Part shown: piece after piece, positions 14,613-44,860 of the stretch | Numbering within the stretch: the stretch's first letter is position 1 | Layout of the letters: each line of letters opens with the position of its first letter | NCBI GenBank assembly: GCA_013153315.1 | Contig: JAADES010000048.1 | Coordinates: 812-64,811 of the forward strand | Source of the DNA: Aquificota bacterium | GTDB lineage: Bacteria > Aquificota > Aquificia > Aquificales > QOAS01 | Length of the DNA stretch: 64,000 nt | Reading direction: 5' to 3' | Notes under the pieces: generated by a model | The model's database searches: none | Told to the model about the DNA's origin: nothing | Seen by the model: the letters and a program-made list of their open reading frames with translations, nothing else | Made by a program: the position numbers and the translations under genes

Positions 14613-17495
14613 ATGAAAACAAAAAAACTTTTAACGGCTTTGGCTTTATTTGGAAGCTTGGGAGTTGTTAACCATAGTTGGGGTGAAACTGTTCAGGAAA
14701 TTTGTCAAACAACTACCGAAACATTACCCGGTGCATTTGCCAACCTTATGTTGGTTTTGGACTATTCGGGAAGTATGAATGATTACATATATAGAAACTC
14801 GCGATGGTCTACTTATGACTCTAACAAGTTATATTTTGGATATTTCGACCCATTTGGTGCCTATATATACGATACTTCGGTTGGGGCTTATAAAAAAATA
14901 GGAAATGTTAATCCTGATTTATTAAATGCTGGCTATGGAAATCAATTTAAATATGGTTGGCGACATGGTTATGGATATGGATATAAACATCAGTATGGTA
15001 AGCGAGGTATAAAGGTTTTCAGTGGTAATTACCTCAACTGGTACTATATGACCAAAGTAGACCTATTAAGGTTAATTCTTACAGGAGGAAAAACTACCTT
15101 TAGTGGAAATAGTTATGTTGAGTATACATATACTTTACCCCAACCGGCAATAACATACACCTGCCCGCAATATCAAAACGATTTAGTTAAAGATATAATC
15201 CTTTTTGGAAAAAGTTTAACCCAGTTGGTTCAGCAGGCAGCAAATGTAGATAGTTTAAATCCCGATGATATAAACCAAAATGTAGCTTCTTGTTTGTATA
15301 AATTGGCATCTGAAGCTCAAAATGTGAATACAACCCAATTGCAAACAGAAATACAAAATATTTGGAATAATTCCGCCGATTTTGATAGTTTTGTAGAAAG
15401 CGAAGGTTTATCTCCACAAGATTTTAATAATTTCTTAAACAACAAAAATACCGACTACAAGAGCGCGATTTACAACTTGCTAAATGATTTATTTAACAAT
15501 GTGGTGCTGTCTACTATAAATTCAGAAACTTTTAAAAATCCCGATATTAAAAACTATATACAACAACTAATAGACTATGCAAAAAACGGTTTATATAGCA
15601 TTGCTAACGGTTTAGGTAGCTCAATAGATGCCAATAACATTGAAAACAATTTCCTAACAAATATAAACAACTATACTAACACTGTTAGAGATAAAATAAG
15701 CAACACCTATAGTTATGTTTCTGCGGATATAGACAAGCTAATCCAACTTTGCGAAAAATTACCAAATTGCCAGTATGATGCCACCCAAAACGCAATTATC
15801 TATAAAGCCTATGCTCCACAAAGCTTATTACAGTTCTACTGTCCTATGCTAGACACCTTTAATGCAGATTGGGCCAAAAGACACTTTTTCTGCAGATTTT
15901 TACCTCACGGCTATTTAAGAAAAGCCTGTCACAACGGAGAGGTTCAAATTTCCTGCCAAACCGAAACTGGAACTTTATTTGTGGAACTCCAAGATGGAAC
16001 AAAAATTTATGCTAACTCCACTATAACTTATAACCCTGCAAATGGACAGGTGGAAGGTTTACTCCAAAGGTTGGAAGAAGTTTCTTATAAACCTCGTGTT
16101 GGAGCAGCTTTATATTCCAACCCTTCGGATGATGAAGTTATTAAAGATTGGATTTATCCCGGCTATAGCTACAGTGGTGTTATAGATGTTATAAACAATG
16201 AAAATCCGGAAGGAGGAACTCCCACCGGTGAAGCTTTTGATGAAATCAAAAGATATTTCTCGCGGGAAAGCGGCGTTTGGGGCGGTTTTTCCACCAACGA
16301 TGCAGGATATGTAGACCCCTATACTTTTACTATAAATGTCGACAACTATACAATTGAAGATTCTAAAAATTTAAACATCTTAATTTCCGACGGTGCTTGG
16401 AACGGACACGGTGGTGTATACAATTATCCGCCAAGTAACTGTTTAAACGATAGCATAGCTATGAAAAATTTACCCGATGTTAGTGTATCATGGAGTAACT
16501 ACTGGATATGTGCTATAGACCCTGCTCAACCTGTTTACAATATGTGGAAAGGCTCAAAAGCTGATTTAGTCCCAGAATTGGCCGGAAACCAAAATGTGGA
16601 AACAATATCGGTTCCCGTACTAATGGATAGCTCTCAAAGCTACGGCTTAAATGCTATGAAAAATATAGCTATAGCGGGCGGTTTTATCGATAAGGATAAT
16701 GACCAATTACCGGCTGGTTACACTTCCGAACCTCCTAATCCTCAATGCGGAGCCGACCAAGGGCCCCCTTGCGGTTCGTTCGTAGATATTCCTTCTGCCA
16801 ACAGTGACCCCAACAATGAATGGCACACTAATAGCGGTGACATAGTTAATTACTACTCGGCCAGCCAACCCTATGACCTTTTGAGCGCATTGGTTAAAAG
16901 CTTTGAAAATGCTGTAGGCAAAATTAAAAATGTAACTTGTTACCAGCTTCTAACAGAAAAAGAAATTCCTTCCGCATTCATAGCTAATTATGTTAGAAAT
17001 ACCCTTCAGGAGATTAACACCTACGTTAATTCGGACAATTTGGACTACTATAAAAAGGCTGCAGAAGCATTACTTAATTTAGTGCATTATGACTTGTATT
17101 TAGCTAACTATCCTTATTTAGCAAAAATAGAGTTTCTTATAAATCAAATAAATTCCGCAAGCGATGTAACCTCGTTCCAAAATGCAGTAAACAATGCTAT
17201 TTCTACCGTCTTTCTAAGCTACCGACAAGCGTTAATGAATACTTTGAATGCTTTAATTCAAACCTTGGAAGAACAAATTCAAAACTCCGGCGGAGAGGTT
17301 ACAGAAGAAATTCTTAACACCGAAAGGAAAATTGTTAAAACTGTCCGCAATTTAGCAGTTCTATACAATCAAAACCCCGCGGAGGTTACTCAAACTTTGG
17401 AAAATAATATAAACAACCCTCAACAGTTCTTAACCGAAACTAAGAATGCCGCCGCAAGCTACAGTGTTCAAATTCTCCTTTGGTTGGAATATTAA
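14613..17495 (+). CDS. secreted cysteine-rich protein with a split von Willebrand factor A (MIDAS) domain; PilY1-like adhesin candidate
   Basis: 960 aa. GAAGGAGG RBS. Signal peptide 'MKTKKLLTALALFGSLGVVNHSWG'. MIDAS 'DYSGS' near residue 50, 'GGTPTGEAF' near 535, 'ILISDGAWNG' near 590. N/Y/Q-rich helical insert and tail. Visibly lower GC than the flanking dxs and leuA. Confidence 0.6.
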   Translation: MKTKKLLTALALFGSLGVVNHSWGETVQEICQTTTETLPGAFANLMLVLDYSGSMNDYIYRNSRWSTYDSNKLYFGYFDPFGAYIYDTSVGAYKKIGNVNPDLLNAGYGNQFKYGWRHGYGYGYKHQYGKRGIKVFSGNYLNWYYMTKVDLLRLILTGGKTTFSGNSYVEYTYTLPQPAITYTCPQYQNDLVKDIILFGKSLTQLVQQAANVDSLNPDDINQNVASCLYKLASEAQNVNTTQLQTEIQNIWNNSADFDSFVESEGLSPQDFNNFLNNKNTDYKSAIYNLLNDLFNNVVLSTINSETFKNPDIKNYIQQLIDYAKNGLYSIANGLGSSIDANNIENNFLTNINNYTNTVRDKISNTYSYVSADIDKLIQLCEKLPNCQYDATQNAIIYKAYAPQSLLQFYCPMLDTFNADWAKRHFFCRFLPHGYLRKACHNGEVQISCQTETGTLFVELQDGTKIYANSTITYNPANGQVEGLLQRLEEVSYKPRVGAALYSNPSDDEVIKDWIYPGYSYSGVIDVINNENPEGGTPTGEAFDEIKRYFSRESGVWGGFSTNDAGYVDPYTFTINVDNYTIEDSKNLNILISDGAWNGHGGVYNYPPSNCLNDSIAMKNLPDVSVSWSNYWICAIDPAQPVYNMWKGSKADLVPELAGNQNVETISVPVLMDSSQSYGLNAMKNIAIAGGFIDKDNDQLPAGYTSEPPNPQCGADQGPPCGSFVDIPSANSDPNNEWHTNSGDIVNYYSASQPYDLLSALVKSFENAVGKIKNVTCYQLLTEKEIPSAFIANYVRNTLQEINTYVNSDNLDYYKKAAEALLNLVHYDLYLANYPYLAKIEFLINQINSASDVTSFQNAVNNAISTVFLSYRQALMNTLNALIQTLEEQIQNSGGEVTEEILNTERKIVKTVRNLAVLYNQNPAEVTQTLENNINNPQQFLTETKNAAASYSVQILLWLEY

Positions 17496-21637: not shown

Positions 21638-24600
21638 ATGTTCAGCGAAAATATGCTTTCTAAGAAGGCCAAAGAATATTTAAATTTGGCTAAAGAAATA
21701 GCAAAAAAATATAAAGACTATAAAGCCGATACCGACCACCTACTTTTGGCCTTTCTATCGGATAAAGAAAGCCCTCTTTACAAAATAATAGAAAAAAGGG
21801 GTATAGACACCAAAAACCTCCGCCAACAGATAGTTTCCCACTTGGAACAACTCTACGAACAAATAGACAAAGCGGTAGAAAGTGAAGCCCAAAGACTGAT
21901 AAACCTTCGTGCCGAAATAATTCGTATAAAAAGCGATATTGCCCAGCTGCAGCAGGAACTCCAAGCTTTAGAAAAGGAAAAGAAACGCTTGCAAAAGGCT
22001 TTGGCCGAAGCCCGTCGTTGGGGTGACTGGTTTGAAGAGCAAACCATAGCCTTGGAACTCCAAAGGTTGGAAGCCCTTGAGCAAAGCTATCTAGCCCAAC
22101 TCAAGCAGGTTGAAGAAAGCCTTTCCCAGGTTTTCGACCGCGAAGCGGTAAAGAAATTTTTAGAAGGAAAACTATCCATAGACGGTTTAGTGAAAACAGC
22201 TTTAGAAAAATCTCCTTTAATAGAGCAACTAAAAGAAATCGGCGTATCCTCCGATAGGGTTATAGCCAAAATTGCCGCCAAAGTTTTTGGAAGAAAACCC
22301 AAAGAAATCGATTACGCCGAATATTTAATAAAAGTCCTCGAAAAGGCCGAAGATAAGGCCGTTTCCGAAAAAGAGAGCGAAATAAAACCCTATCACATTG
22401 CCGCGGCCTTAATAGAGGCCAAAGATTACTTAGCAGGAAAACTTTTAGAACAAATATTTGGAGGAGGTAAGGAAGCTATGAAAGATATGACCCAAGAACT
22501 TAAAGAGGAAGAAAAATCTGCCCTCGAAAGGTTTACCGTAGATTTAACCCAACTGGCTAAGGAAGGTAAATTAGACCCCGTCGTAGGTAGGGAAAAAGAA
22601 ATTAACCAAACTATAGAGGTTCTTCTCCGTAGGAAAAAGAACAATCCCGTATTGGTGGGTGATGCCGGTGTAGGTAAAACAGCCATAGTGGAAGGATTGG
22701 CCCAAAAAATAGTAAACAAGGAAGTTCCTCCCGAACTGCAGGATAAGAGAATTCTCGCCCTCGATATGGCCGCCCTAATGGCGGGAACCAAATACCGCGG
22801 AGAATTCGAAGAGAGACTCAAAAAACTGCTCGACGAGGTTAAAAAAGAAGGAAACGTAATCCTCTTTATTGACGAAATCCACACCGTAGTGGGTGCAGGT
22901 AAGGCCGAAGGTGCCATGGATATGGCCAACATTATGAAACCCGCCTTGGCCCGTGGTGAAATAAGGGTAATCGGAGCAACCACCGTAGACGAATACAGAA
23001 AATACATCGAAAAAGACCCCGCATTGGAAAGAAGATTCCAACCCATCTATGTGGAAGAACCTTCGGTAGAAACAACTATCGAAATTTTGAAAGCTCTAAG
23101 ACCTAAGTTCGAACAACACCACCAAGTTAAGATTTCCGACGAAGCTATCGAAGCTGCCGCGAAATTAACCCACCGCTATGTAACCAACCGCAAACTACCC
23201 GACAAAGCTATCGACGCTTTAGACCAAGCCTGTGCAAGGAAAAAACTTTCTGTGGTAATGCCTCCACCCGAACTGCAGGAAATTGAAAGAAAACTCAAAC
23301 AAATCGAGGAAGAAATTGTAGAAGCTAACCTCAAAGGTGATTACGAAAGGGAAGCCGAACTCAAAATTAAGAAAATTGAACTGGAAAAGAAAAAGAACGA
23401 ACTGCTTAAAAAATACGGCTCCGTGGAAGCTCGCATTAACGCAATCAAAGAAGAAATCAAAAAGGTTGAAGAGGAGATTAAAAAGGCCGTAGAAGCGGGC
23501 GATGTTGATAAGGAATATGAACTTAAAAAACGCCTAATAGAGTTGGAGAAAGAACTAAAGAAATTGGAAAAACAAAAGGCCAACGAAGTGGTTGTAACCT
23601 ACGACGATGTTGCGGCCGTGGTATCCGAATGGACAGGAATACCCGTATCCAAGCTAAAAGAGGAAGAAAAACAAAAGCTTCTAAAATTGGAAGACGAGCT
23701 TCACAAACGTGTAATAGGCCAAGACCACGCTGTTAAAGCCGTAGCCGAAGCTATTAGAAGGGCAAGAGCTGGACTAAAAGACCCCAAACGTCCCATAGCC
23801 AGCTTCATGTTCCTGGGGCCCACCGGTGTAGGTAAAACCGAATTGGCAAAAGCGTTGGCGGAACTCCTATTTGGCGATGAAGACGCAATGATTAGACTGG
23901 ACATGTCCGAATTCAAAGAGGAACACTCGGTGGCCAAACTAATCGGAGCTCCCCCCGGCTACGTGGGTTACGAAGAGGGAGGAAAACTAACCGAGGCGGT
24001 AAGAAGAAAACCCTATTCGGTCATACTATTGGATGAAATTGAAAAAGCCCACCCCAGGGTATTTGACTTATTCCTCCAAGTGTTGGACGATGGAAGATTA
24101 ACCGACTCCAAAGGTAGAACCGTAGACTTTAGAAACACCGTAATAATAATGACCTCCAACGTAGGTAGCCAATATCTGCTAAATATCCCCCTCGACGCTG
24201 ATGAAGAAACAATGGAAAGGGAATTCGAAAAGGCCAAAGAAAAAGTTCTCGAAGAACTAAAAATGAGATTCCGACCCGAATTCCTAAACCGTATTGACGA
24301 AATAATCACCTTTAAACCTCTAACAATGAAAGAGCTATTGCAAATCGTAGACCTCCTAATAAAACGCGTTAACGAAAGGTTGGCGGATAAGAATATGAAA
24401 ATAGAACTAACCGAAGAGGCAAAAAAAGAATTGGCCAGAAGAGGTTATGACCCCGCCTTCGGAGCAAGACCTCTTAGAAGAACCATCCAAAAATATATAG
24501 AAACCCCCTTGGCGGACATGATACTGGAAGGAAAATTCAAAGAGGGCGACACCATAGTGGTAGACTACGACAAGGAAAAGAAAGAGTTTGTATTCCTCAA

Positions 24601-24682
24601 AAAGGAAGAATTTGAAAAACAGAAACAGCAAAAGGAAGAAAAGAAAGATAAAGACCAAAAGAAGGAAGAGGATAAAAAATAA
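21638..24682 (+). CDS. clpB: ATP-dependent disaggregase ClpB (long form, 1014 aa)
   Basis: Two AAA+ modules ('[15 protein letters not shown]', '[15 protein letters not shown]'), a coiled-coil M-domain, and a Clp_N domain interrupted by a coiled-coil insert of about 140 aa (residues ~70-215). Confidence 0.95.
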
Positions 24683-37205: not shown

Positions 37206-38363
37206 ATGGTTTTCGGATTTTTTAGACGAAAGAAGACCCAAAAACCTCTTTCGGTGGGTGATTTAAGAAAGCTCCTAAAAGAGGGTAAATATAAGGATGT
37301 AATAAACTCCCTTAAGGAGCGTTATAAGGAAAACCAAGAGTTGACACAAATTTATTTTGAGGCCCTTGTAAAGGCTAACCATATTGAAGAGGCGAAAAAA
37401 CTTTTAAAGGAAGTTGGTAAGGAAAACTTACCTCCCTCGGCAGTTGCTTTGTTGATGGAAGAACCTAAAAAGGAAAGTCTTTTAGAAAAATTCAAAAGAG
37501 GTTTAAAGAAAACCCGTCAACTATTGAAGTTAGATAGCTTTTTCAAACAACACAAAGAGGTAGATGAAGAATTTTACGAGCAATTGGAGGAGCTTTTAAT
37601 AAAACTCGATGTAGGGGTCGATACGGCGGTTAACCTGGTAGAGGAAATAAGAGAAAAGAAATTTACCAATGTGGAGGAAGTTAAAGATTTCCTCAAAAAG
37701 CGCTTTAAGGAAATTCTCAAAAACTGCAAAGGGGAATTTCAACTGCAGGGAATTCCTGCGGTGGTTATGTTTGTGGGTGTTAATGGAAGCGGAAAAACAA
37801 CCTCTATCGGAAAATTGGCCTACAAGCTAAAGAAAGGCGGGAAAAAGGTTCTTATAGTGGCCGCCGACACCTTCAGGGCGGCAGCAACCGAACAGCTTAA
37901 AACTTGGGCCGATAGGGCCGGTGTGGACTTTGTTGGAGATAGGGAGGGGGCAGACCCGGGTGCGGTTCTTTACAAAGGTTTGCAAAAGGCTTTTAGCGAA
38001 AATTATGACGTCGTGCTGGTGGATACAGCCGGCCGCCTCCACACAAAGGAGCACCTCCTAAGGGAGATGCAAAAACTGGTTAAGGTGGTGAAAAAGTTTG
38101 ACCAAAGCCAACCTTCGGAGGTTCTTTTAGTTCTGGACGCAACTATAGGCCAAAACTCCTTAAACCAGGCGAAAATGTTTGCTTCGGCGGTAGATGTAAG
38201 CGGGATTGTTTTAACAAAGTTGGACGGCACCGCCAAAGGGGGGGCTATAATTCCAATCTGCAAAAATCTAAAAATTCCTGTTAAATTTGTGGGTGTGGGC
38301 GAAGGAATAGAGGATTTAGAACCCTTCGACCCCGAAAAATTTGTCGAAGCTATGTTCGAGTAA
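37206..38363 (+). CDS. ftsY: signal recognition particle receptor FtsY
   Basis: 385 aa. SRP-GTPase NG domain: 'VGVNGSGKTTSIGKLA', 'DTFRAAATEQL', 'DTAGRLH', 'LTKLDGTAKGG'. Confidence 0.9.
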   Translation: MVFGFFRRKKTQKPLSVGDLRKLLKEGKYKDVINSLKERYKENQELTQIYFEALVKANHIEEAKKLLKEVGKENLPPSAVALLMEEPKKESLLEKFKRGLKKTRQLLKLDSFFKQHKEVDEEFYEQLEELLIKLDVGVDTAVNLVEEIREKKFTNVEEVKDFLKKRFKEILKNCKGEFQLQGIPAVVMFVGVNGSGKTTSIGKLAYKLKKGGKKVLIVAADTFRAAATEQLKTWADRAGVDFVGDREGADPGAVLYKGLQKAFSENYDVVLVDTAGRLHTKEHLLREMQKLVKVVKKFDQSQPSEVLLVLDATIGQNSLNQAKMFASAVDVSGIVLTKLDGTAKGGAIIPICKNLKIPVKFVGVGEGIEDLEPFDPEKFVEAMFE

Positions 38364-38374
38364 AAAACTTTTTC

Positions 38375-39199
38375 TTACCTACGGAAGAAACTGGCAATTT
38401 TACTCCAAAAGCCTTTTTTCTCTTCAACCTGTTTGTAGCGATTTTTTAACATATTTTTTAGTATTTCATCTACGTATTTATTGATTTCATCGGGAATATC
38501 GCCCTGAGATAGACGCGGATTAAAAGGTATATGCCCCAAGCCTTCGATTTCTATATTTTTATGGAAGGATTTAACCGATTTCCTCAAAACATTTATGGTC
38601 TTTTTGTAGTCCAAATCGGTTCTTGTTTGGTTTACGATTGCATAAAAGTAGGTTTTCCTAAAGTTTTGGAAAACGGTTTTAACAAAAGCGTAGGCATCTA
38701 TTATCGACATTATGTCGGGTGTAACTACTAACACGGGATAATGGACGGTTGCAAAAATTAGTTGGTTTATTTTGTGAATTCCCGCCCCCAGGTCTATGAG
38801 GAAGTAGTTGTAATTGTTAACAATGTATTCCTCCAACTTGGTTAGAAGTTCCATCGCCTGTTTGTTGTCCAGAGAAACCAAATAGTCGTCTCCGCTTTTG
38901 GGACTCATTAAATATAGGTTATGGTCAATTTGGGTAACAATATCGTCCAACGTAGCCCTTCCTTCGAAGTATTCTTCCAAATATCTTTTAGGTTTAACGC
39001 CGCTGAGTATATAGAAGTCGGGAAGCCCCATATCGGCGTCCAAAACTAAAACCTTTCCTAATTTGCTAAGGCGCTTTGCTAAGAGATAAGTTACCATAGT
39101 TTTGCCGACGCCGCCCTTACCACCGCCTACGGCTATGTAGGGAACCGTATTTACACCTATGTTTTGCTCAAAAATGGCTAATTGTTTTTCTTTCTCCAT
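38375..39199 (-). CDS. flhG: MinD/ParA-type ATPase, flagellar number regulator FlhG (YlxH/FleN)
   Basis: 274 aa. Deviant Walker A 'GGGKGGVGKTM'. Sits immediately downstream of flhF on the same strand. Confidence 0.7.
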   Translation of the reverse strand: MEKEKQLAIFEQNIGVNTVPYIAVGGGKGGVGKTMVTYLLAKRLSKLGKVLVLDADMGLPDFYILSGVKPKRYLEEYFEGRATLDDIVTQIDHNLYLMSPKSGDDYLVSLDNKQAMELLTKLEEYIVNNYNYFLIDLGAGIHKINQLIFATVHYPVLVVTPDIMSIIDAYAFVKTVFQNFRKTYFYAIVNQTRTDLDYKKTINVLRKSVKSFHKNIEIEGLGHIPFNPRLSQGDIPDEINKYVDEILKNMLKNRYKQVEEKKGFWSKIASFFRR

Positions 39200-39222
39200 T
39201 GCGCCTCTTACTATAAATTAAC

Positions 39223-40431
39223 TTATTCAAGTATAACTTTTGCAAGGTTGATAGGGCTTCCTACAAGTAGGTTGTGGGGAACCTTTTGGCCATTGGTAAT
39301 ATAAAAAAGCGGCATTTGCGTTTTGGCCAAAACATTCAGAATTACTCCCCTTTTACGGGTTTCATCGGCCTTTGTGAAAACCCAACCGTCCAGTTTGTAG
39401 CGTTTTAAATGGTTATAAATTTCTAAAATCGTATCTTCGCTCATTGTGAAGCTAACGGTAAGGAGGATTTTTAATTTCTCCTCTTCGAGGGAGGAAAAAA
39501 TATTGAAAACCTCCTTCCAAGAAAGCTCATCATAGATGCTTCGGCCGGCTATATCGACAAAAATAAAGTCTTTGTCGGAAAAATCTTCCAAAGCTACATC
39601 GAAAGCTTTTTTTGTATCCGCTTTGCGAAAGGGAATTTCCAACACCTTCAAATAGTTTTCCAATCTTTGGGTTCCACCAACCCTAAAAGTATCCAAGGAA
39701 ATAACACCCACCTTTTTGTTGTGATTTAAAACCAAATTGGACACTATTTTGGCTATCGTTGTAGTTTTTCCCACACCGGTTGGGCCTATTAGGGAAACTA
39801 TTGTTTGTTCCTCCGAATTTTCCAACCTTCCGAAGGTAAATAATTCTTCAAAGGCCGTGGCAAGGGCGTTTAATGGTTGGTCCTTTAGGTCGAAAATTTT
39901 GTTTTCAATATCGAAACCGGTGGCGTGCTTTAAGATTTCTACTATAAGTTTTTCATCGACACCTTTTTCCAGTAAAAGGTCGAATAAATTTAAAGCCTCA
40001 TCCCCCAATTGGTTTAAGAATTTTTCATCTTCTTTATCCAGTTTTGGTTTTCCTTTATCCCAAGTAAGGTTAATTTTTTTCACTTTCTGCTTTGAAAGGG
40101 CTTCCTTTAAAGTAGCCAATTCCTTTTTAAGTTCTTCCAAGCTTTTTAGTAGGAGTTCCTTTTCAAGGGCTTCCTTAAAAGAACTTTCCCCTAAGGGTGT
40201 GGCTTTTTGAGAGCTTTCTTTAATAGGTTTTCTTTGTTTTTGTATAGGTTCCTCGTCGGGTATTTCTATTATCACCTCGGTGTATTCCTTTGCCAGAAAG
40301 GGTAAAAAAGGAAGACTTTTTTCCTTAACGCGGTTGATTTCTATTACCACGAAGTTATTTCCGTAAATCCGTCTAAGCTCCTCGTGGATTTCAACGATAT
40401 CCTTAGCGGGGAAAATTCGTCGGATTATCAT
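39223..40431 (-). CDS. flhF: flagellar biosynthesis SRP-type GTPase FlhF
   Basis: 402 aa. '[15 protein letters not shown]', 'DTFRVGGTQRL', 'DIAGRS', 'FTKADET'. Confidence 0.8.
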   Translation of the reverse strand: MIIRRIFPAKDIVEIHEELRRIYGNNFVVIEINRVKEKSLPFLPFLAKEYTEVIIEIPDEEPIQKQRKPIKESSQKATPLGESSFKEALEKELLLKSLEELKKELATLKEALSKQKVKKINLTWDKGKPKLDKEDEKFLNQLGDEALNLFDLLLEKGVDEKLIVEILKHATGFDIENKIFDLKDQPLNALATAFEELFTFGRLENSEEQTIVSLIGPTGVGKTTTIAKIVSNLVLNHNKKVGVISLDTFRVGGTQRLENYLKVLEIPFRKADTKKAFDVALEDFSDKDFIFVDIAGRSIYDELSWKEVFNIFSSLEEEKLKILLTVSFTMSEDTILEIYNHLKRYKLDGWVFTKADETRKRGVILNVLAKTQMPLFYITNGQKVPHNLLVGSPINLAKVILE

Positions 40432-40517
40432 ACTTAAAGATTGTCCTTATATTGGAACGTCTTAGGTTGTTAAGACCTTCCTTAGGAAGAAATAAATAAA
40501 AACCGAAAAGAGAAAGT

Positions 40518-41621
40518 TTAGTCCTCAGGAACTATAACCTGCCTTATAGGTAGCCCATATTTAACCGCAAATTCATAGTCCCTTTCGTCGTGGGCGGGGA
40601 CGGCCATTATAGCACCGGTTCCGTATTCGGCTAAAACATAGTTGGCAGTCCATACGGGTATTAAATCGCCCGTAAGCGGGTGGCGGGCATAACGACCTAG
40701 GAATACACCTTCTTTTTCTTTTACCCTGCGGCGTTCCTCTACTGGAAGGCTTTTTATACGCTTTAAAAATTCTTCAACTTGCTTTTCTTGGGGAGTTCCT
40801 TTAGCCAGTTTTTGGGTTAGCGGGTGTTCGGGAGCTAAAACTAGAAAGGTCACTCCGAATAATGTATCGGGGCGGGTTGTAAATACCACAATTTCATCGC
40901 CCGTTTCGGGGACTTCAAAAATAATTTCCGCCCCTTCGCTTTTTCCTATCCAATTTTTCTGTTGGGCTATAACCCTGTCGGGCCATTTTCCTTTGAGTTT
41001 TTCGAGGTCTTCTAAGAGTTGGTCGGCGTAGGCGGTAATTTTCAAATACCAAGAAGGGATTTCTTTTTGAACTATAGGCGTATCACAACGCCAACATCTC
41101 CCTTCTATAACTTGCTCGTTGGCCAAGACGGTTTCGCAGGAGGGGCACCAGTTAACCACCGCACTTTTGCGGTAGGCTATTCCTTTTTCCAACATTTTTA
41201 GGAAAATCCATTGGTTCCATTTGTAATAATCGGGTTCACAGGTGGCTATTTCCCTATCCCAATCGTAGGAAAGCCCCAACAGTTTGAGTTGCCTTTTCAT
41301 GTTTTCAATGTTTTTCTTTGTCCACTCGGCGGGGTGAATTTTATGTTTTATCGCCGCATTTTCGGCCGGTAAACCGAAAGCGTCCCAACCCATGGGGTGA
41401 AGAATGTTGGCCCCTTTCATTTTAAGGTAGCGAGCTACGGCGTCTCCTATGGTGTAGTTTCTAACGTGCCCCATATGAATGTTTCCCGAAGGATAGGGGA
41501 ACATTTCGAGGACATATTTTTTGTTGGGTTTTCCCTCTTGGGCCTTAAAGGCTTTATTTTCTTCCCACTTTTGTTGCCATTTTTTCTCTACCTTTCGGGG
41601 ATTGTATTTTTCCCTTTCCAT
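40518..41621 (-). CDS. leuS: leucyl-tRNA synthetase, N-terminal 367-aa fragment only (split subunit or truncated relic)
   Basis: Clean LeuRS N-terminus: '[19 protein letters not shown]' (HIGH), Zn knuckle '[23 protein letters not shown]', then '[27 protein letters not shown]' followed by TAA. There is no KMSKS or anticodon-binding region here or in the 86 bp before flhF. Confidence 0.85.
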
Positions 41622-41642
41622 TTAAGTCTAAGAATTTTAGGT

Positions 41643-41906
41643 TTAAAAAACCCTAAAACTTTCCCAAGGTTCGTATATATATCCTTCCACCCACTCGAGT
41701 TTATCGACTATGTAAACCCTTACGCGGTCTTGGTGCTTATTTATAAGCTTCCTTAAACGGGAGACCAAACGGGATAACTCGGTTCGGGTTATATTGGGAA
41801 TATAGAAAACCGAAAGTTGGTAGCGGTATCCGTAAGAAGACAAGAGTTGAGAGACTTTATTTCTCCTTTGGTCGTCGGAAATGTCATAAGCAATAACTAC
41901 TTTCAT
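41643..41906 (-). CDS. cas2: Cas2-like protein (orphan; no cas1, other cas genes or array in the window)
   Basis: 87 aa from the Met at 41906: 'MKVVIAYDISDDQRRNKVSQLLSSYGYRYQLSVFYIPNITRTELSRLVSRLRKLINKHQDRVRVYIV'. This is the Cas2 ferredoxin-like pattern, with the N-terminal beta-strand carrying the conserved Asp and 'Q.SVF'. The track ORF extends to 41948. Confidence 0.7.
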   Translation of the reverse strand: MKVVIAYDISDDQRRNKVSQLLSSYGYRYQLSVFYIPNITRTELSRLVSRLRKLINKHQDRVRVYIVDKLEWVEGYIYEPWESFRVF

Positions 41907-41924
41907 TTGTTTTATTTTAAACGA

Positions 41925-41986
41925 CCTTAAAAGGGTTGTTTTAATCAAACCTTCAATTGCAAGATTTATTAAAACCCTAAAAGGGA
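41925..41986. repeat. triple-hairpin element: 38-nt imperfect palindrome flanked by two short CCYTAAAAGGG palindromes
   Basis: 'gttttaatcaaaccttcaattgcaagatttattaaaac' (41938-41975) has perfect GTTTTAAT/ATTAAAAC arms. It is flanked by 'ccttaaaaggg' and 'ccctaaaaggg'. It lies between the atpZ-like stop and the cas2 start. Confidence 0.5.
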
Positions 41987-42000
41987 ATTAAAAAACTTAA

Positions 42001-42306
42001 CTATTCTTTTTTTTGTTCTATTTTTGACAAACTTTCGTCGGAGCTAGATTGGTCGGTAGTTTTTAAGGTAGTTTTATTTTCCTTTTCCACCAGGCGGTTC
42101 ATCTCTTGGTAGGCGTTTTTAAAGCCTGCTATTATTCCCAAAAGGAAAAATATCAACAGCCCCCACGGGGAAGAGTTAAATAAGCTGTCAACCACATAAC
42201 CGACCAAAAGGCCGGCCAATACGCCCCCGATAATGTGGGTAGCCACCAAGAAGGCGGAACTTTCCTGAGAAATAAATTTGAGTGGAAATTTAAATTTTTT
42301 AGCCAT
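42001..42306 (-). CDS. AtpZ/AtpI-like small membrane protein (putative F0F1-ATPase-associated subunit family)
   Basis: About 101 aa from the Met at 42306. Two TM helices in the family pattern 'IIGGVLAGLLVGYVVDSLFNSSPWGLLIFFLLGIIAGF'. No atp operon nearby. Confidence 0.55.
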   Translation of the reverse strand: MAKKFKFPLKFISQESSAFLVATHIIGGVLAGLLVGYVVDSLFNSSPWGLLIFFLLGIIAGFKNAYQEMNRLVEKENKTTLKTTDQSSSDESLSKIEQKKE

Positions 42307-42321
42307 GCTATAGATATAGAT

Positions 42322-42891
42322 ATGCAAATCTCTACCCACCTTTGTGAGAAATTCAAAAAGGTAAAACTCCTATTAATGGATGTTGATGGAATTTTAAACG
42401 ACGGTAGGGTTTACTATGTTCCCTTTCCCAACGGGGAAATAAAAATAGCAAAATTTTTCAACGTTAGGGACGGTTTAGGTATAAACCTCCTTAGAGCTGT
42501 TGGAATAAAAATAGGGGTAATAACCGGTCGGAGCGACGAAGTTGTATTAAAAAGATGTCAAGACCTCAAATGTGCCTTTATAAAAATGGGGGTAAAAAAT
42601 AAGCTTGCCGCCCTTGAGGAAGCTTTAAAAACCTTTAACCTGACCGCCGAAGAGGTTTGCTATATCGGCGACGATTGGAACGATTTTCCCGTGTTAAAGG
42701 CCGTTGGAGTTTCTGCCACCGTAGCCGACGCCCCCGAGGAAATCAAAGAGGTCGTAGATTACATTACGACCAAAAAAGGTGGAGACGGAGCCGTTAGGGA
42801 ACTTATTGAGGTTATTCTCAAATGTCAAAACCGATTTGAGGAAGCTGTTAGTATCTTCCTCCAAAAGTTAGAAAAGGGCGAAAAACCCTAA
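42322..42891 (+). CDS. kdsC: 3-deoxy-D-manno-octulosonate 8-phosphate phosphatase (HAD family, KdsC-like)
   Basis: HAD motif I 'LLLMDVDGILNDGRVYY', 'NVRDGLGI', and 'YIGDDWNDFPVLKAVG'. The start is more likely the ATG at 42322 than the track start at 42235. Confidence 0.8.
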   Translation: MQISTHLCEKFKKVKLLLMDVDGILNDGRVYYVPFPNGEIKIAKFFNVRDGLGINLLRAVGIKIGVITGRSDEVVLKRCQDLKCAFIKMGVKNKLAALEEALKTFNLTAEEVCYIGDDWNDFPVLKAVGVSATVADAPEEIKEVVDYITTKKGGDGAVRELIEVILKCQNRFEEAVSIFLQKLEKGEKP

Positions 42892-42898
42892 GGGTATT

Positions 42899-43168
42899 TT
42901 ATTGTTTAGCCATTTTTTGTTTTTTGTATTGGTTGAATTTTGCCCATATAAGGTCTTTTAAGTGTAATTTTTCCCTCTTCATGGCCTCCAATTCTTTTTC
43001 TAAGGCCGAACTCATAGGGTTATGTTTTTCTAACTTATCGGTTTTAACATTTAGTTCGTAATGTCTATCCACCCATTCTTTAAATTCTTCGTCGGTTTCA
43101 TAGAGTTCGGTGAAAAGTTTTTTGTCCTCTTCGTTAGTAAGTTCTTTTAAAAAGAGCCCTTTCTTCAT
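42899..43168 (-). CDS. DUF465 (YdcH-like) family small protein
   Basis: 89 aa, helical. 'LEKELEAMKREKLHLKDLI' resembles the DUF465 C-terminal pattern. Confidence 0.5.
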   Translation of the reverse strand: MKKGLFLKELTNEEDKKLFTELYETDEEFKEWVDRHYELNVKTDKLEKHNPMSSALEKELEAMKREKLHLKDLIWAKFNQYKKQKMAKQ

Positions 43169-43189
43169 TTAAAAACCTCCTAAGGGTGG

Positions 43190-43837
43190 TTAGTTTTTAA
43201 ACTTAAAGAGGATTTTTGAGGAAAACAAGTCTTTAATTTGGAGGTTGTAAACTTTAAAATCGTATTTTTTGAGCCAACTTTCCTCTATTTTTTGGCCTTT
43301 CATAATAACGATAAGTTCGGTGGCGAATTTATCCAGGAGCCGATAAGCATAGTCGAGGGGGTGGATTTTTTTTCCCTTAACTTCCAAAGCTCGGGAAACC
43401 GCTATATGGCACTTTAATTCAACCTCTTGGGCCATTTGGCAATGCACCGTATAATCCAAGCCTAACTTTGTTTTCAAATAGGATAGAAATGAACATTTTT
43501 TTGAAACACTTTCAATAAGGTGAACTTCCAAACTATCGCCGTAGTAAATTTTTAGAGGAACTCCCGGAAATCCTGCCCCGCTACCTACATCGACCAAAGA
43601 TTTGCCCCGCGGGTTGTAACCTATTTCTCTGAAAAACTTGACGAGGGAAAGACTATCGCAAAAGTGACGTTTAATTATTTCTTCATCCTTTTCAACCGCC
43701 GTAAGGTTGTGTATTCGATTCCATTTTTTTAAAGTTTCCAAGTAAAGGATAAATTTGTTTTTCTGTTCCTCGTTTAGGTTTATCTCGAGTTTTGTACAAA
43801 GCTCCTCCAGTAGTTTTTTTAAATGGTTACCGTTCAT
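43190..43837 (-). CDS. rsmG: 16S rRNA (guanine527-N7)-methyltransferase RsmG (GidB)
   Basis: 215 aa. 'WNRIHNLTAV', SAM motif 'LVDVGSGAGFPGVPLKI'. Confidence 0.85.
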   Translation of the reverse strand: MNGNHLKKLLEELCTKLEINLNEEQKNKFILYLETLKKWNRIHNLTAVEKDEEIIKRHFCDSLSLVKFFREIGYNPRGKSLVDVGSGAGFPGVPLKIYYGDSLEVHLIESVSKKCSFLSYLKTKLGLDYTVHCQMAQEVELKCHIAVSRALEVKGKKIHPLDYAYRLLDKFATELIVIMKGQKIEESWLKKYDFKVYNLQIKDLFSSKILFKFKN

Positions 43838-43990
43838 AGTAGGGGATTATTGTCTTCTCTCCCTTCGGGGACGGGAAGAACCACCATATCGCCTCATGGA
43901 GGGTGTTGGCCCCCGTACCCGCAATAACGGGAACCCTTTCGTTAGCATATTCAACCGCAAATAAAAGGTAGAAAATTAAAATATTCCACT

Positions 43991-44359
43991 GTGCGGATTT
44001 TAATAATAGAGGATCGCTTCGGTCTAATTTCCACCCGCGTGCCTAAAATGTTTAGCCCTAAATTAATTGTTAAAAATTTTGCACGTTCGGCGGTGGAATT
44101 TTTAAGAAAATGTGAAAACCCAAAGGCTTTTCCTTTACCCCCTTCGGAGTTGGAAGCTCCCAATTTGGAAGGTTACCGCCTAAATGTCTGTTTCAGATTG
44201 TTCTACACCGATATAGAGGATTTTCATAAACCTATGTCTATAGTGGATTTTAAAGTTATGGAAAGCCCTTCGGTGGAATTTGAAATGCAATTTTTAGCGG
44301 GAAAAGTTCCTTTTGTGGATATATCTAGGGTTTACACCTACCTTTTAAAGGAAGAATAA
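43991..44359 (+). CDS. hypothetical protein (122 aa; start uncertain, GTG 43991 or ATG 44048)
   Basis: ORF only, with no recognisable motif. Confidence 0.3.
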   Translation: MRILIIEDRFGLISTRVPKMFSPKLIVKNFARSAVEFLRKCENPKAFPLPPSELEAPNLEGYRLNVCFRLFYTDIEDFHKPMSIVDFKVMESPSVEFEMQFLAGKVPFVDISRVYTYLLKEE

Positions 44360-44371
44360 AAAAGAAAACCT

Positions 44372-44860
44372 TTAAAGGTTCTTTTTGCTTCTTTCCATAG
44401 CCTGTTGGGCAAGGTATTGATTTCCGAACTTTTGGAGGTTTAGAAATTCCCTTTCAAAGGTTTCAAAGTGTCTTTCTTCGTCCATAACAACCTTCTTAAA
44501 TAGCTGTTCTGTTCCTATATCTCGGTCGTGGGCAACAACCTCCATAGCCCATTTGGAATAGAGTTCTACAGCCTCTGCTTCGCTCTGCATTGCTATTTCC
44601 AACATCTTTTGGGGGTCTTGAACTTTTTGTATTTGCCCGGCCAGTTTTCCCAGTTCTACGTCCCCGCCAAGGAACAGTATTCTTTCGGCAAAGGCTTCTA
44701 TATGCTTCATTTCCTCTATGGCGATTTTCTTAAAGATGGCGGCCAACAAATCGTAACCCATATCGTCCAGAAGGAAATGGAAATACATGTATTGGTGCAA
44801 AGCTAATTCCTCTTCGGCTATGGCTTTATTTAAAAGTTCAACACTTTTAGGATTTCTCAT
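44372..44860 (-). CDS. bfr: bacterioferritin / ferritin-like diiron protein
   Basis: 162 aa four-helix-bundle pattern with ferroxidase ligands ('EEELALHQY', 'IEEMKHIE', 'AEAVELY', 'DEERHFETF'). Confidence 0.75.
   Translation of the reverse strand: MRNPKSVELLNKAIAEEELALHQYMYFHFLLDDMGYDLLAAIFKKIAIEEMKHIEAFAERILFLGGDVELGKLAGQIQKVQDPQKMLEIAMQSEAEAVELYSKWAMEVVAHDRDIGTEQLFKKVVMDEERHFETFEREFLNLQKFGNQYLAQQAMERSKKNL

Follow-up and report, generated by a model that had tools for sequence, protein, structure and literature searches.

The window analyzed here, a 64-kb stretch of DNA, carries on its minus strand an open reading frame (ORF) of 367 codons that codes for the N-terminal part of a leucyl-tRNA synthetase (LeuRS) and stops shortly before flhF. 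Its product is an exact match to NPA14654.1, deposited from a 67-kb contig as "MAG: leucine--tRNA ligase [Aquificae bacterium]". The features of the locus are listed below, with the ORF product named piece 1.

40518–41621, minus strand: LeuRS piece 1 gene, 367 codons, ATG start, TAA stop (NPA14654.1)
41466–41477, minus strand: HIGH signature, HMGH, residues 49–52, read from the sequence
41085–41147, minus strand: zinc knuckle CPSC...CWRC, residues 159–179, all four Cys kept
40521–40958, minus strand: first three quarters of the CP1 editing domain, residues 222–367 (PF13603 positions 1–144 of 185)
40863–40880, minus strand: Thr-rich editing-site motif TTRPDT, residues 248–253, from the sequence
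40587–40622, minus strand: second editing-site motif, residues 334–345, with the conserved Asp345, from the sequence
40518–40520, minus strand: TAA stop codon, the putative new fission point, kept in position within a few residues across the lineage
40432–40517, minus strand: spacer of 86 nt from the stop codon to the flhF ATG (40431), with two short hairpins

The ORF has the traits of a bacterial-type class Ia LeuRS: the N-terminal Rossmann half holds the HIGH signature, and the CP1 insertion follows the zinc knuckle and carries the Thr-rich and GTG...AHD motifs, the domain being incomplete in this chain. The Pfam profiles agree, with tRNA-synt_1 (PF00133) matched over positions 1–225 of 414 (E = 7e-34) and the LeuRS editing domain (PF13603) over positions 1–144 of 185 (E = 6e-61). 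HMGH, T248–T253, and the motif 334–345 are invariant columns in an alignment of 54 sequences; the first Cys pair of the zinc knuckle reads CPHD in Aquificaceae α subunits (P0004, P0009, and P0055). Motifs and profiles thus bear out the initial annotation, which had described an intact LeuRS N terminus of 367 codons with HMGH and a zinc knuckle. It had also let the ORF reach only the start of the editing insertion, and here it has to be corrected. Residues 2–362 of Thermus thermophilus LeuRS align to piece 1 with 519.7 bits, placing the ORF end near residue 366, and residues 9–153 of the 201-residue Aquifex aeolicus CP1 crystal construct 3PZ5 align to ORF residues 228–366, so that the construct extends about 48 residues beyond the break. 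The break therefore lies about three quarters of the way into the editing domain, past all known editing-site motifs.

Neither the ORF, nor the rest of the 64-kb window, nor the middle gene described below contains a KMSKS loop, an anticodon-binding domain, or a C-terminal domain. What the ORF encodes is therefore part of a LeuRS and not a whole enzyme. Searches of the 64 kb by tblastn with Aquificaceae α subunits and full-length LeuRSs found no further LeuRS segment, in line with the initial reading that the rest of the enzyme is missing from the window. The sequence likewise agrees with that reading of the 86 bp before flhF: the spacer holds the hairpins CTTCC-TAA-GGAAG and GTCTTA-N6-TAAGAC and no LeuRS reading frame, and no downstream frame resumes the LeuRS sequence. 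No family, intron, or ribozyme was found by Rfam over positions 38000–44500. There is no consensus terminator around the break, and promoter signals do not exceed chance.

On the upstream side, a lone cas2 (PF09827, E = 1e-18; 41643–41948, minus strand) ends 21 bp before the leuS piece; the ORFs scanned include no cas1, and no repeat array was detected in the 64 kb by Tandem Repeats Finder. On the downstream side, flhF and flhG (38375–40431, minus strand) share the strand of the leuS piece. Because only 86 nt and no consensus terminator separate them, the leuS piece may be cotranscribed with the flagellar placement genes in the window genome, an arrangement that is not kept in relatives. Elsewhere in the window, a ClpB-like protein of 1014 aa (21638–24682, plus strand) has about 250 residues without a Pfam match between its Clp_N match (18–69) and its first AAA domain (from about 315); this stretch exceeds the usual length in ClpB and possibly represents an inserted domain. 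Between dxs and leuA lies an ORF of 960 aa (14613–17495, plus strand) without a Pfam match at E ≤ 1e-5.

Piece 1 is a conserved free-standing gene. It belongs to an uncultured lineage from hydrothermal vents, whose sequences are labeled Aquificae, Aquificales, or "Aquifex sp." at NCBI. The three clusters nearest to the window protein have lengths of 369, 374, and 365 aa and identities of 88, 87, and 80%, respectively, while all other homologue matches are Aquificaceae α subunits (~600 aa, 68–73% identity) or full-length enzymes. The three piece 1 clusters comprise 58 sequences of 365–374 aa, and the 90% cluster of the window protein has 53 members. The 20 listed members of the three clusters all end near ...YGLPI+xV[IV].P.., apart from one partial sequence. 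Fifteen contigs carry one variant (P0391); they come from ENA and JGI, from two MAGs at NCBI, and from eight Logan runs. Synteny in the relatives is consistent with a fixed gene end: the same end point is found despite at least six distinct neighborhoods in independent assemblies, namely cas2/flhF in the window, atpB/mlaE, dxr/Ser-Thr kinase, a trmA-like tRNA methyltransferase, RNase R/SecA, and ham1/mlaE. The DNA downstream of the stop codon is unrelated among the four relatives compared. Pairwise dN/dS ratios of piece 1 are 0.04–0.10, with synonymous sites at or near saturation, and neither relaxed selection nor frameshifts nor differing end points were found. The junction itself is reproduced by an independent Logan assembly of run SRR33939667, in which one contig, running from the 3' end of cas2 through the ORF and the spacer into the start of flhF, matches window positions 40295–41897 at 99.5% identity with zero gaps; it is therefore not an assembly error. 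The N-terminal segment of a LeuRS encoded on a contig from a viral collection (L006, IMGVR_UViG_3300043540_000149) shares 65% identity with the window protein; the contig is probably cellular DNA filed as viral.

The remainder of the α subunit was sought by scanning GTDB species genomes with a degenerate DNA pattern for DWNISRQRYWGTPIP, a motif nearly specific to Aquificota LeuRS in the data examined, and by sorting the resulting loci, at least 119, with tblastn. A stand-alone middle gene with no LeuRS N-terminal part upstream was found in JALSNH01 (243 aa), JALVTI01 (241 aa), and DTXZ01 (241 aa). The corresponding 90% clusters have 25, 10, and 22 members, 57 sequences altogether. Complete sequences of this product, named piece 2, are 239–245 aa long, with three listed entries of 255 aa that have a longer C-terminal tail. 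The listed complete sequences start M(x)1–5 KLPYT.xG.L[VI]NSG, and in the family alignment this start is the residue that follows the stop point of the window ORF. At the other end, ...LGL.E..TVGEL.EKL.E.G[YF]L.. coincides with the end of Aquificaceae α subunits in the leucine-specific domain. The break at the end of piece 2 thus lies, as in the Aquifex-type enzyme, within the leucine-specific domain upstream of KMSKS; in place of a single α subunit of ~600–635 aa, however, there are two genes, of 365–374 and 239–245 aa. Five piece 2 genes gave dN/dS ratios of 0.04–0.06. Pfam coverage tiles across the pieces: piece 2 matches PF00133 at positions 228–370 and PF13603 at 152–185, the latter at 21.9 bits and so under the curated cut-off of 25 bits, and the Aquificaceae β subunit matches PF00133 at 373–413 together with PF08264. 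The middle piece is labeled "class I tRNA ligase family protein" or "hypothetical protein" at NCBI, so that genomes of the lineage could be scored as having no intact leuS.

Seven apparent stand-alone middle pieces (L243, L163, L244, L141, L177, L185, and L213) are cut by block or contig ends and were not counted. In the JALVTI01 and JALWDU01 MAGs (L169 1–1400, minus strand, and L163), a second class I synthetase gene lies directly downstream of the middle piece; the L169 translation reads as MetRS (metG) by eye. When a library of 50%-identity representatives was queried with the Aquificaceae middle segment, mostly fragments and miscalled starts were returned and no lineage-specific piece. A search for a fused piece of ~550 aa comprising the middle and the β C-terminal part, with Thermovibrio residues 366–914 as query, returned full-length enzymes only, which makes a simple two-piece split unlikely. 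The lone candidate for such a fused piece (P0276, 522 aa) represents the downstream member of a pair of overlapping ORFs and probably results from a frameshift. On a JGI contig (L007 4815–7569, plus strand), a Thermovibrio-like LeuRS is present as ORFs of 409 and 522 aa with a 44-nt overlap, probably a frameshift or sequencing error and no true split.

Both pieces occur together in the same genomes. The JGI contig Ga0496631_0000086 has a 368-aa piece 1 on the minus strand and, 4 kb away, a 241-aa piece 2 on the plus strand, with SecA in between, and in the MAG DTXZ01 (GCA_012962155.1) pieces 1 and 2 are found on the contigs DTXZ01000009.1 and DTXZ01000060.1, respectively. Five accession pairs fall in narrow ranges, one per MAG: NPA14654.1/NPA14040.1 (the window MAG), HIC08657/HIC08577, HID79041/HID79648, HIP98817/HIP97878, and RTZ68603/RTZ68662. 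The accession numbering, as distinct from contig identity, suggests that the window MAG also has piece 2, most likely NPA14040.1. In each of three GTDB MAGs, the one Aquificota LeuRS-motif locus among the loci listed is the stand-alone middle piece. Pieces 1 and 2 are thus two conserved genes of complementary coding content that co-occur in this lineage.

By analogy with the Aquifex β subunit, the lineage is expected to have a third, β-like piece. No KMSKS or anticodon-domain segment was found on the lineage contigs examined. With an Aquificaceae β subunit (L149) as query, the best 120 matches listed have at least 57% identity and none is tied to the lineage; a regression of β on α identity predicts ~50% for a lineage β, below the 57% of these matches. 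Ten candidate β clusters and the context of P0465 were inspected as well, without a link to the lineage emerging for any of them. In a metagenome scan, the motif PPExDFEW gave two matches, both unrelated.

To place the break in the fold, an AF2 model was used of the Thermovibrio LeuRS, which is unsplit (P0125; pLDDT 89.4, pTM 0.81). The new break maps to a coil predicted at residues 364–382 (local pLDDT ~90), which follows the helix RDFEFAKKYG and precedes the short strand of ...VLVNS, and the Aquifex-type break maps to another coil, residues 618–625, in the leucine-specific domain. The AF model of piece 1 alone has a moderate pLDDT of 83, with the final 12 residues unstructured. Piece 1 ends 2–7 residues beyond the conserved ...PI+xV[IV] strand, and piece 2 opens with Met and 1–5 further residues ahead of KLPYT. 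Both ends thus lie within a few residues of LeuRS sequence; no intein blocks flank the break, and Pfam finds at neither piece an extra domain of the kind a split intein would have. In the alignment, the loop at the new break differs in length among LeuRS families. Two unrelated LeuRSs carry insertions in this same CP1 loop, of ~200 aa in P0121 (1073 aa; hydrolase-like by eye) and of ~140 aa in a 944-aa enzyme (L262 1021–3855, plus strand). This variation in loop length and the insertions of ~140–200 aa fit an exposed, permissive site.

A neighbor-joining tree built from concatenated pieces 1 and 2 (590 columns, 200 bootstraps) gives 100% support for a monophyletic lineage and 99% for its position as sister to all sampled Aquificaceae. 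Since the lineage shares with them the split in the leucine-specific domain, the cut in CP1 would be a second fission. The split in the leucine-specific domain has parallels in Hydrogenothermaceae: three α-like proteins (P0095, P0104, and P0110; 608–615 aa) end at the Aquifex split site, and their N-terminal part is 81–87% identical to the full-length enzymes P0311 and P0312 (894–896 aa) of the same family. Given this identity between α-like and full-length forms, the sequences make the leucine-specific-domain split seem labile, with multiple origins or reversions; frameshifted MAG genes may instead account for some of the α-like forms.

Taken together, the LeuRS of this lineage is very probably encoded in separate pieces that assemble without covalent joining, the window ORF being piece 1. 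Among the options of the initial annotation, this corresponds to a LeuRS split at a new position, possibly into three pieces. It gains support from the complementary middle gene in the same genomes, from the strong purifying selection on both genes, and from the end of piece 2 at the Aquifex α/β site. An Aquifex-type α subunit would have been split a second time, within a CP1 loop at the protein surface. Piece 1 would then provide the HIGH half of the Rossmann fold, the zinc knuckle, and the part of CP1 with every known editing-site motif; piece 2 would supply the last ~40–50 CP1 residues with the strand returning to the core, the second Rossmann half, and the initial half of the leucine-specific domain. 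The remainder of that domain would come from piece 3 (~290 aa, by analogy with Aquifex β), along with the KMSKS loop and the anticodon-binding and C-terminal domains. The editing domain and the catalytic domain would each be rebuilt from two chains, and the pieces would associate noncovalently as in the Aquifex α/β enzyme. We infer that the pieces assemble physically and form an active enzyme. The two chains of the Aquifex enzyme are held together by noncovalent assembly (PMC3643597).

Several other origins of the short ORF have to be weighed against this noncovalent assembly of separate pieces. The window derives from a MAG, and a misjoin at about 40.45–40.52 kb during assembly or binning could in principle produce such an ORF; the chance is negligible, given that the Logan contig continues from cas2 across piece 1 into flhF with 99.5% identity and no gap and that assemblies of different groups have the same ORF end next to different flanking genes. 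The assembly chimera put forward in the initial annotation is thereby refuted. The same holds for its decaying relic, a pseudogene left by a nonsense mutation or rearrangement. Such an origin might be suspected for an ORF shorter than every characterized LeuRS, in a window lacking KMSKS, and yet it is highly improbable: the dN/dS ratios of 0.04–0.10 come with saturated synonymous sites, the end point is kept in clusters 79–88% identical and in dozens of assemblies, frameshifts are absent, the catalytic and editing motifs are invariant, and the matching partner gene is equally constrained. That pieces 1 and 2 are joined after transcription or translation into an ordinary α subunit, by a trans-splicing intron, a split intein, or recoding, has no positive sign in its favor and is raised only since the coding parts abut perfectly in the alignment. 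It is very improbable as well, with no intein blocks, an empty Rfam search over 38000–44500, genes on opposite strands or different contigs, and flanks that are not conserved.

Also among the early options is the paralogous fragment. A complete LeuRS, possibly of another type, would then be encoded elsewhere, and piece 1, alone or together with piece 2, would be retained for a different task such as trans-editing of mischarged tRNALeu or regulation. Free-standing editing proteins are known for other synthetases and set a precedent, all editing-site motifs are in piece 1, and the β piece has not been located. An editing function alone, however, would have no use for the invariant HIGH signature and the half Rossmann fold that piece 1 has kept, and piece 2 starts exactly where piece 1 ends and carries the other catalytic half, thus complementing the catalytic core. 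The homologues include neither a fused C-terminal piece nor a full-length LeuRS specific to the lineage, and the finding of the middle-piece locus as the only one per MAG in the three GTDB MAGs, among the loci listed, argues weakly in the same direction. We regard a paralogous fragment as improbable.

Within the preferred reading of separately encoded pieces, it is conceivable, although unlikely, that the second fission is adaptive or that piece 1 alone forms a minimal HIGH-plus-editing module. Because the editing domain would be whole only when pieces 1 and 2 meet, an adaptive fission might make proofreading or LeuRS activity tunable through the ratio or assembly of the pieces. Were either of these variants true, the enzyme would be a natural three-chain class I synthetase with two domains rebuilt across chain boundaries.

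Split synthetases are rare natural experiments on the dismantling, and possibly the origin, of large multidomain enzymes. The α/β LeuRS of Aquifex has served as one such study case, and the lineage sister to Aquificaceae appears to go one step past Aquifex, with the α subunit cut inside CP1, at no domain boundary. If the pieces assemble as proposed, they would offer a thermostable system for studying fragment complementation, the coupling of editing and synthetic sites, and the permissiveness of the CP1 loop.

The closest known system is the LeuRS of A. aeolicus (634 + 289 aa), likewise bacterial in type and encoded by unlinked genes, with an α subunit that ends in the leucine-specific domain at the same place as piece 2. 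It differs in that α is here cut into 367 and ~241 aa by a break within CP1, ~270 residues upstream of the Aquifex site, a distance and a placement in the editing domain already given in the first reading of the window. Since α itself is cut in this lineage, three chains are expected, compared with two in Aquifex. Our full-text literature search retrieved the Aquifex α/β enzyme and no natural LeuRS in three pieces or split in CP1; as far as the literature searched shows, this would be the first natural three-chain LeuRS, provided that the pieces assemble as proposed.

Beyond LeuRS, the split ThrRSs of Crenarchaeota consist of separate catalytic and editing proteins, each a complete module, with the break at a domain boundary. 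They resemble the present case in having synthetase and proofreading functions on separately encoded polypeptides, whereas the break described here cuts through the editing domain and parts the two Rossmann halves. Escherichia coli IleRS or MetRS cut in or near CP1 reassembles noncovalently into a working enzyme in laboratory fragment complementation. The proposed mechanism is the same, a cut in the CP1 region followed by noncovalent reassembly; in contrast to those constructs, the LeuRS split is found in nature, has become fixed in a lineage, and is subject to purifying selection. Finally, the split genes of Nanoarchaeum equitans, such as that for AlaRS, place an essential translation enzyme on unlinked ORFs, as the genes described here would do for LeuRS, but they concern another enzyme class and another domain of life, and there AlaRS is divided into two pieces only.
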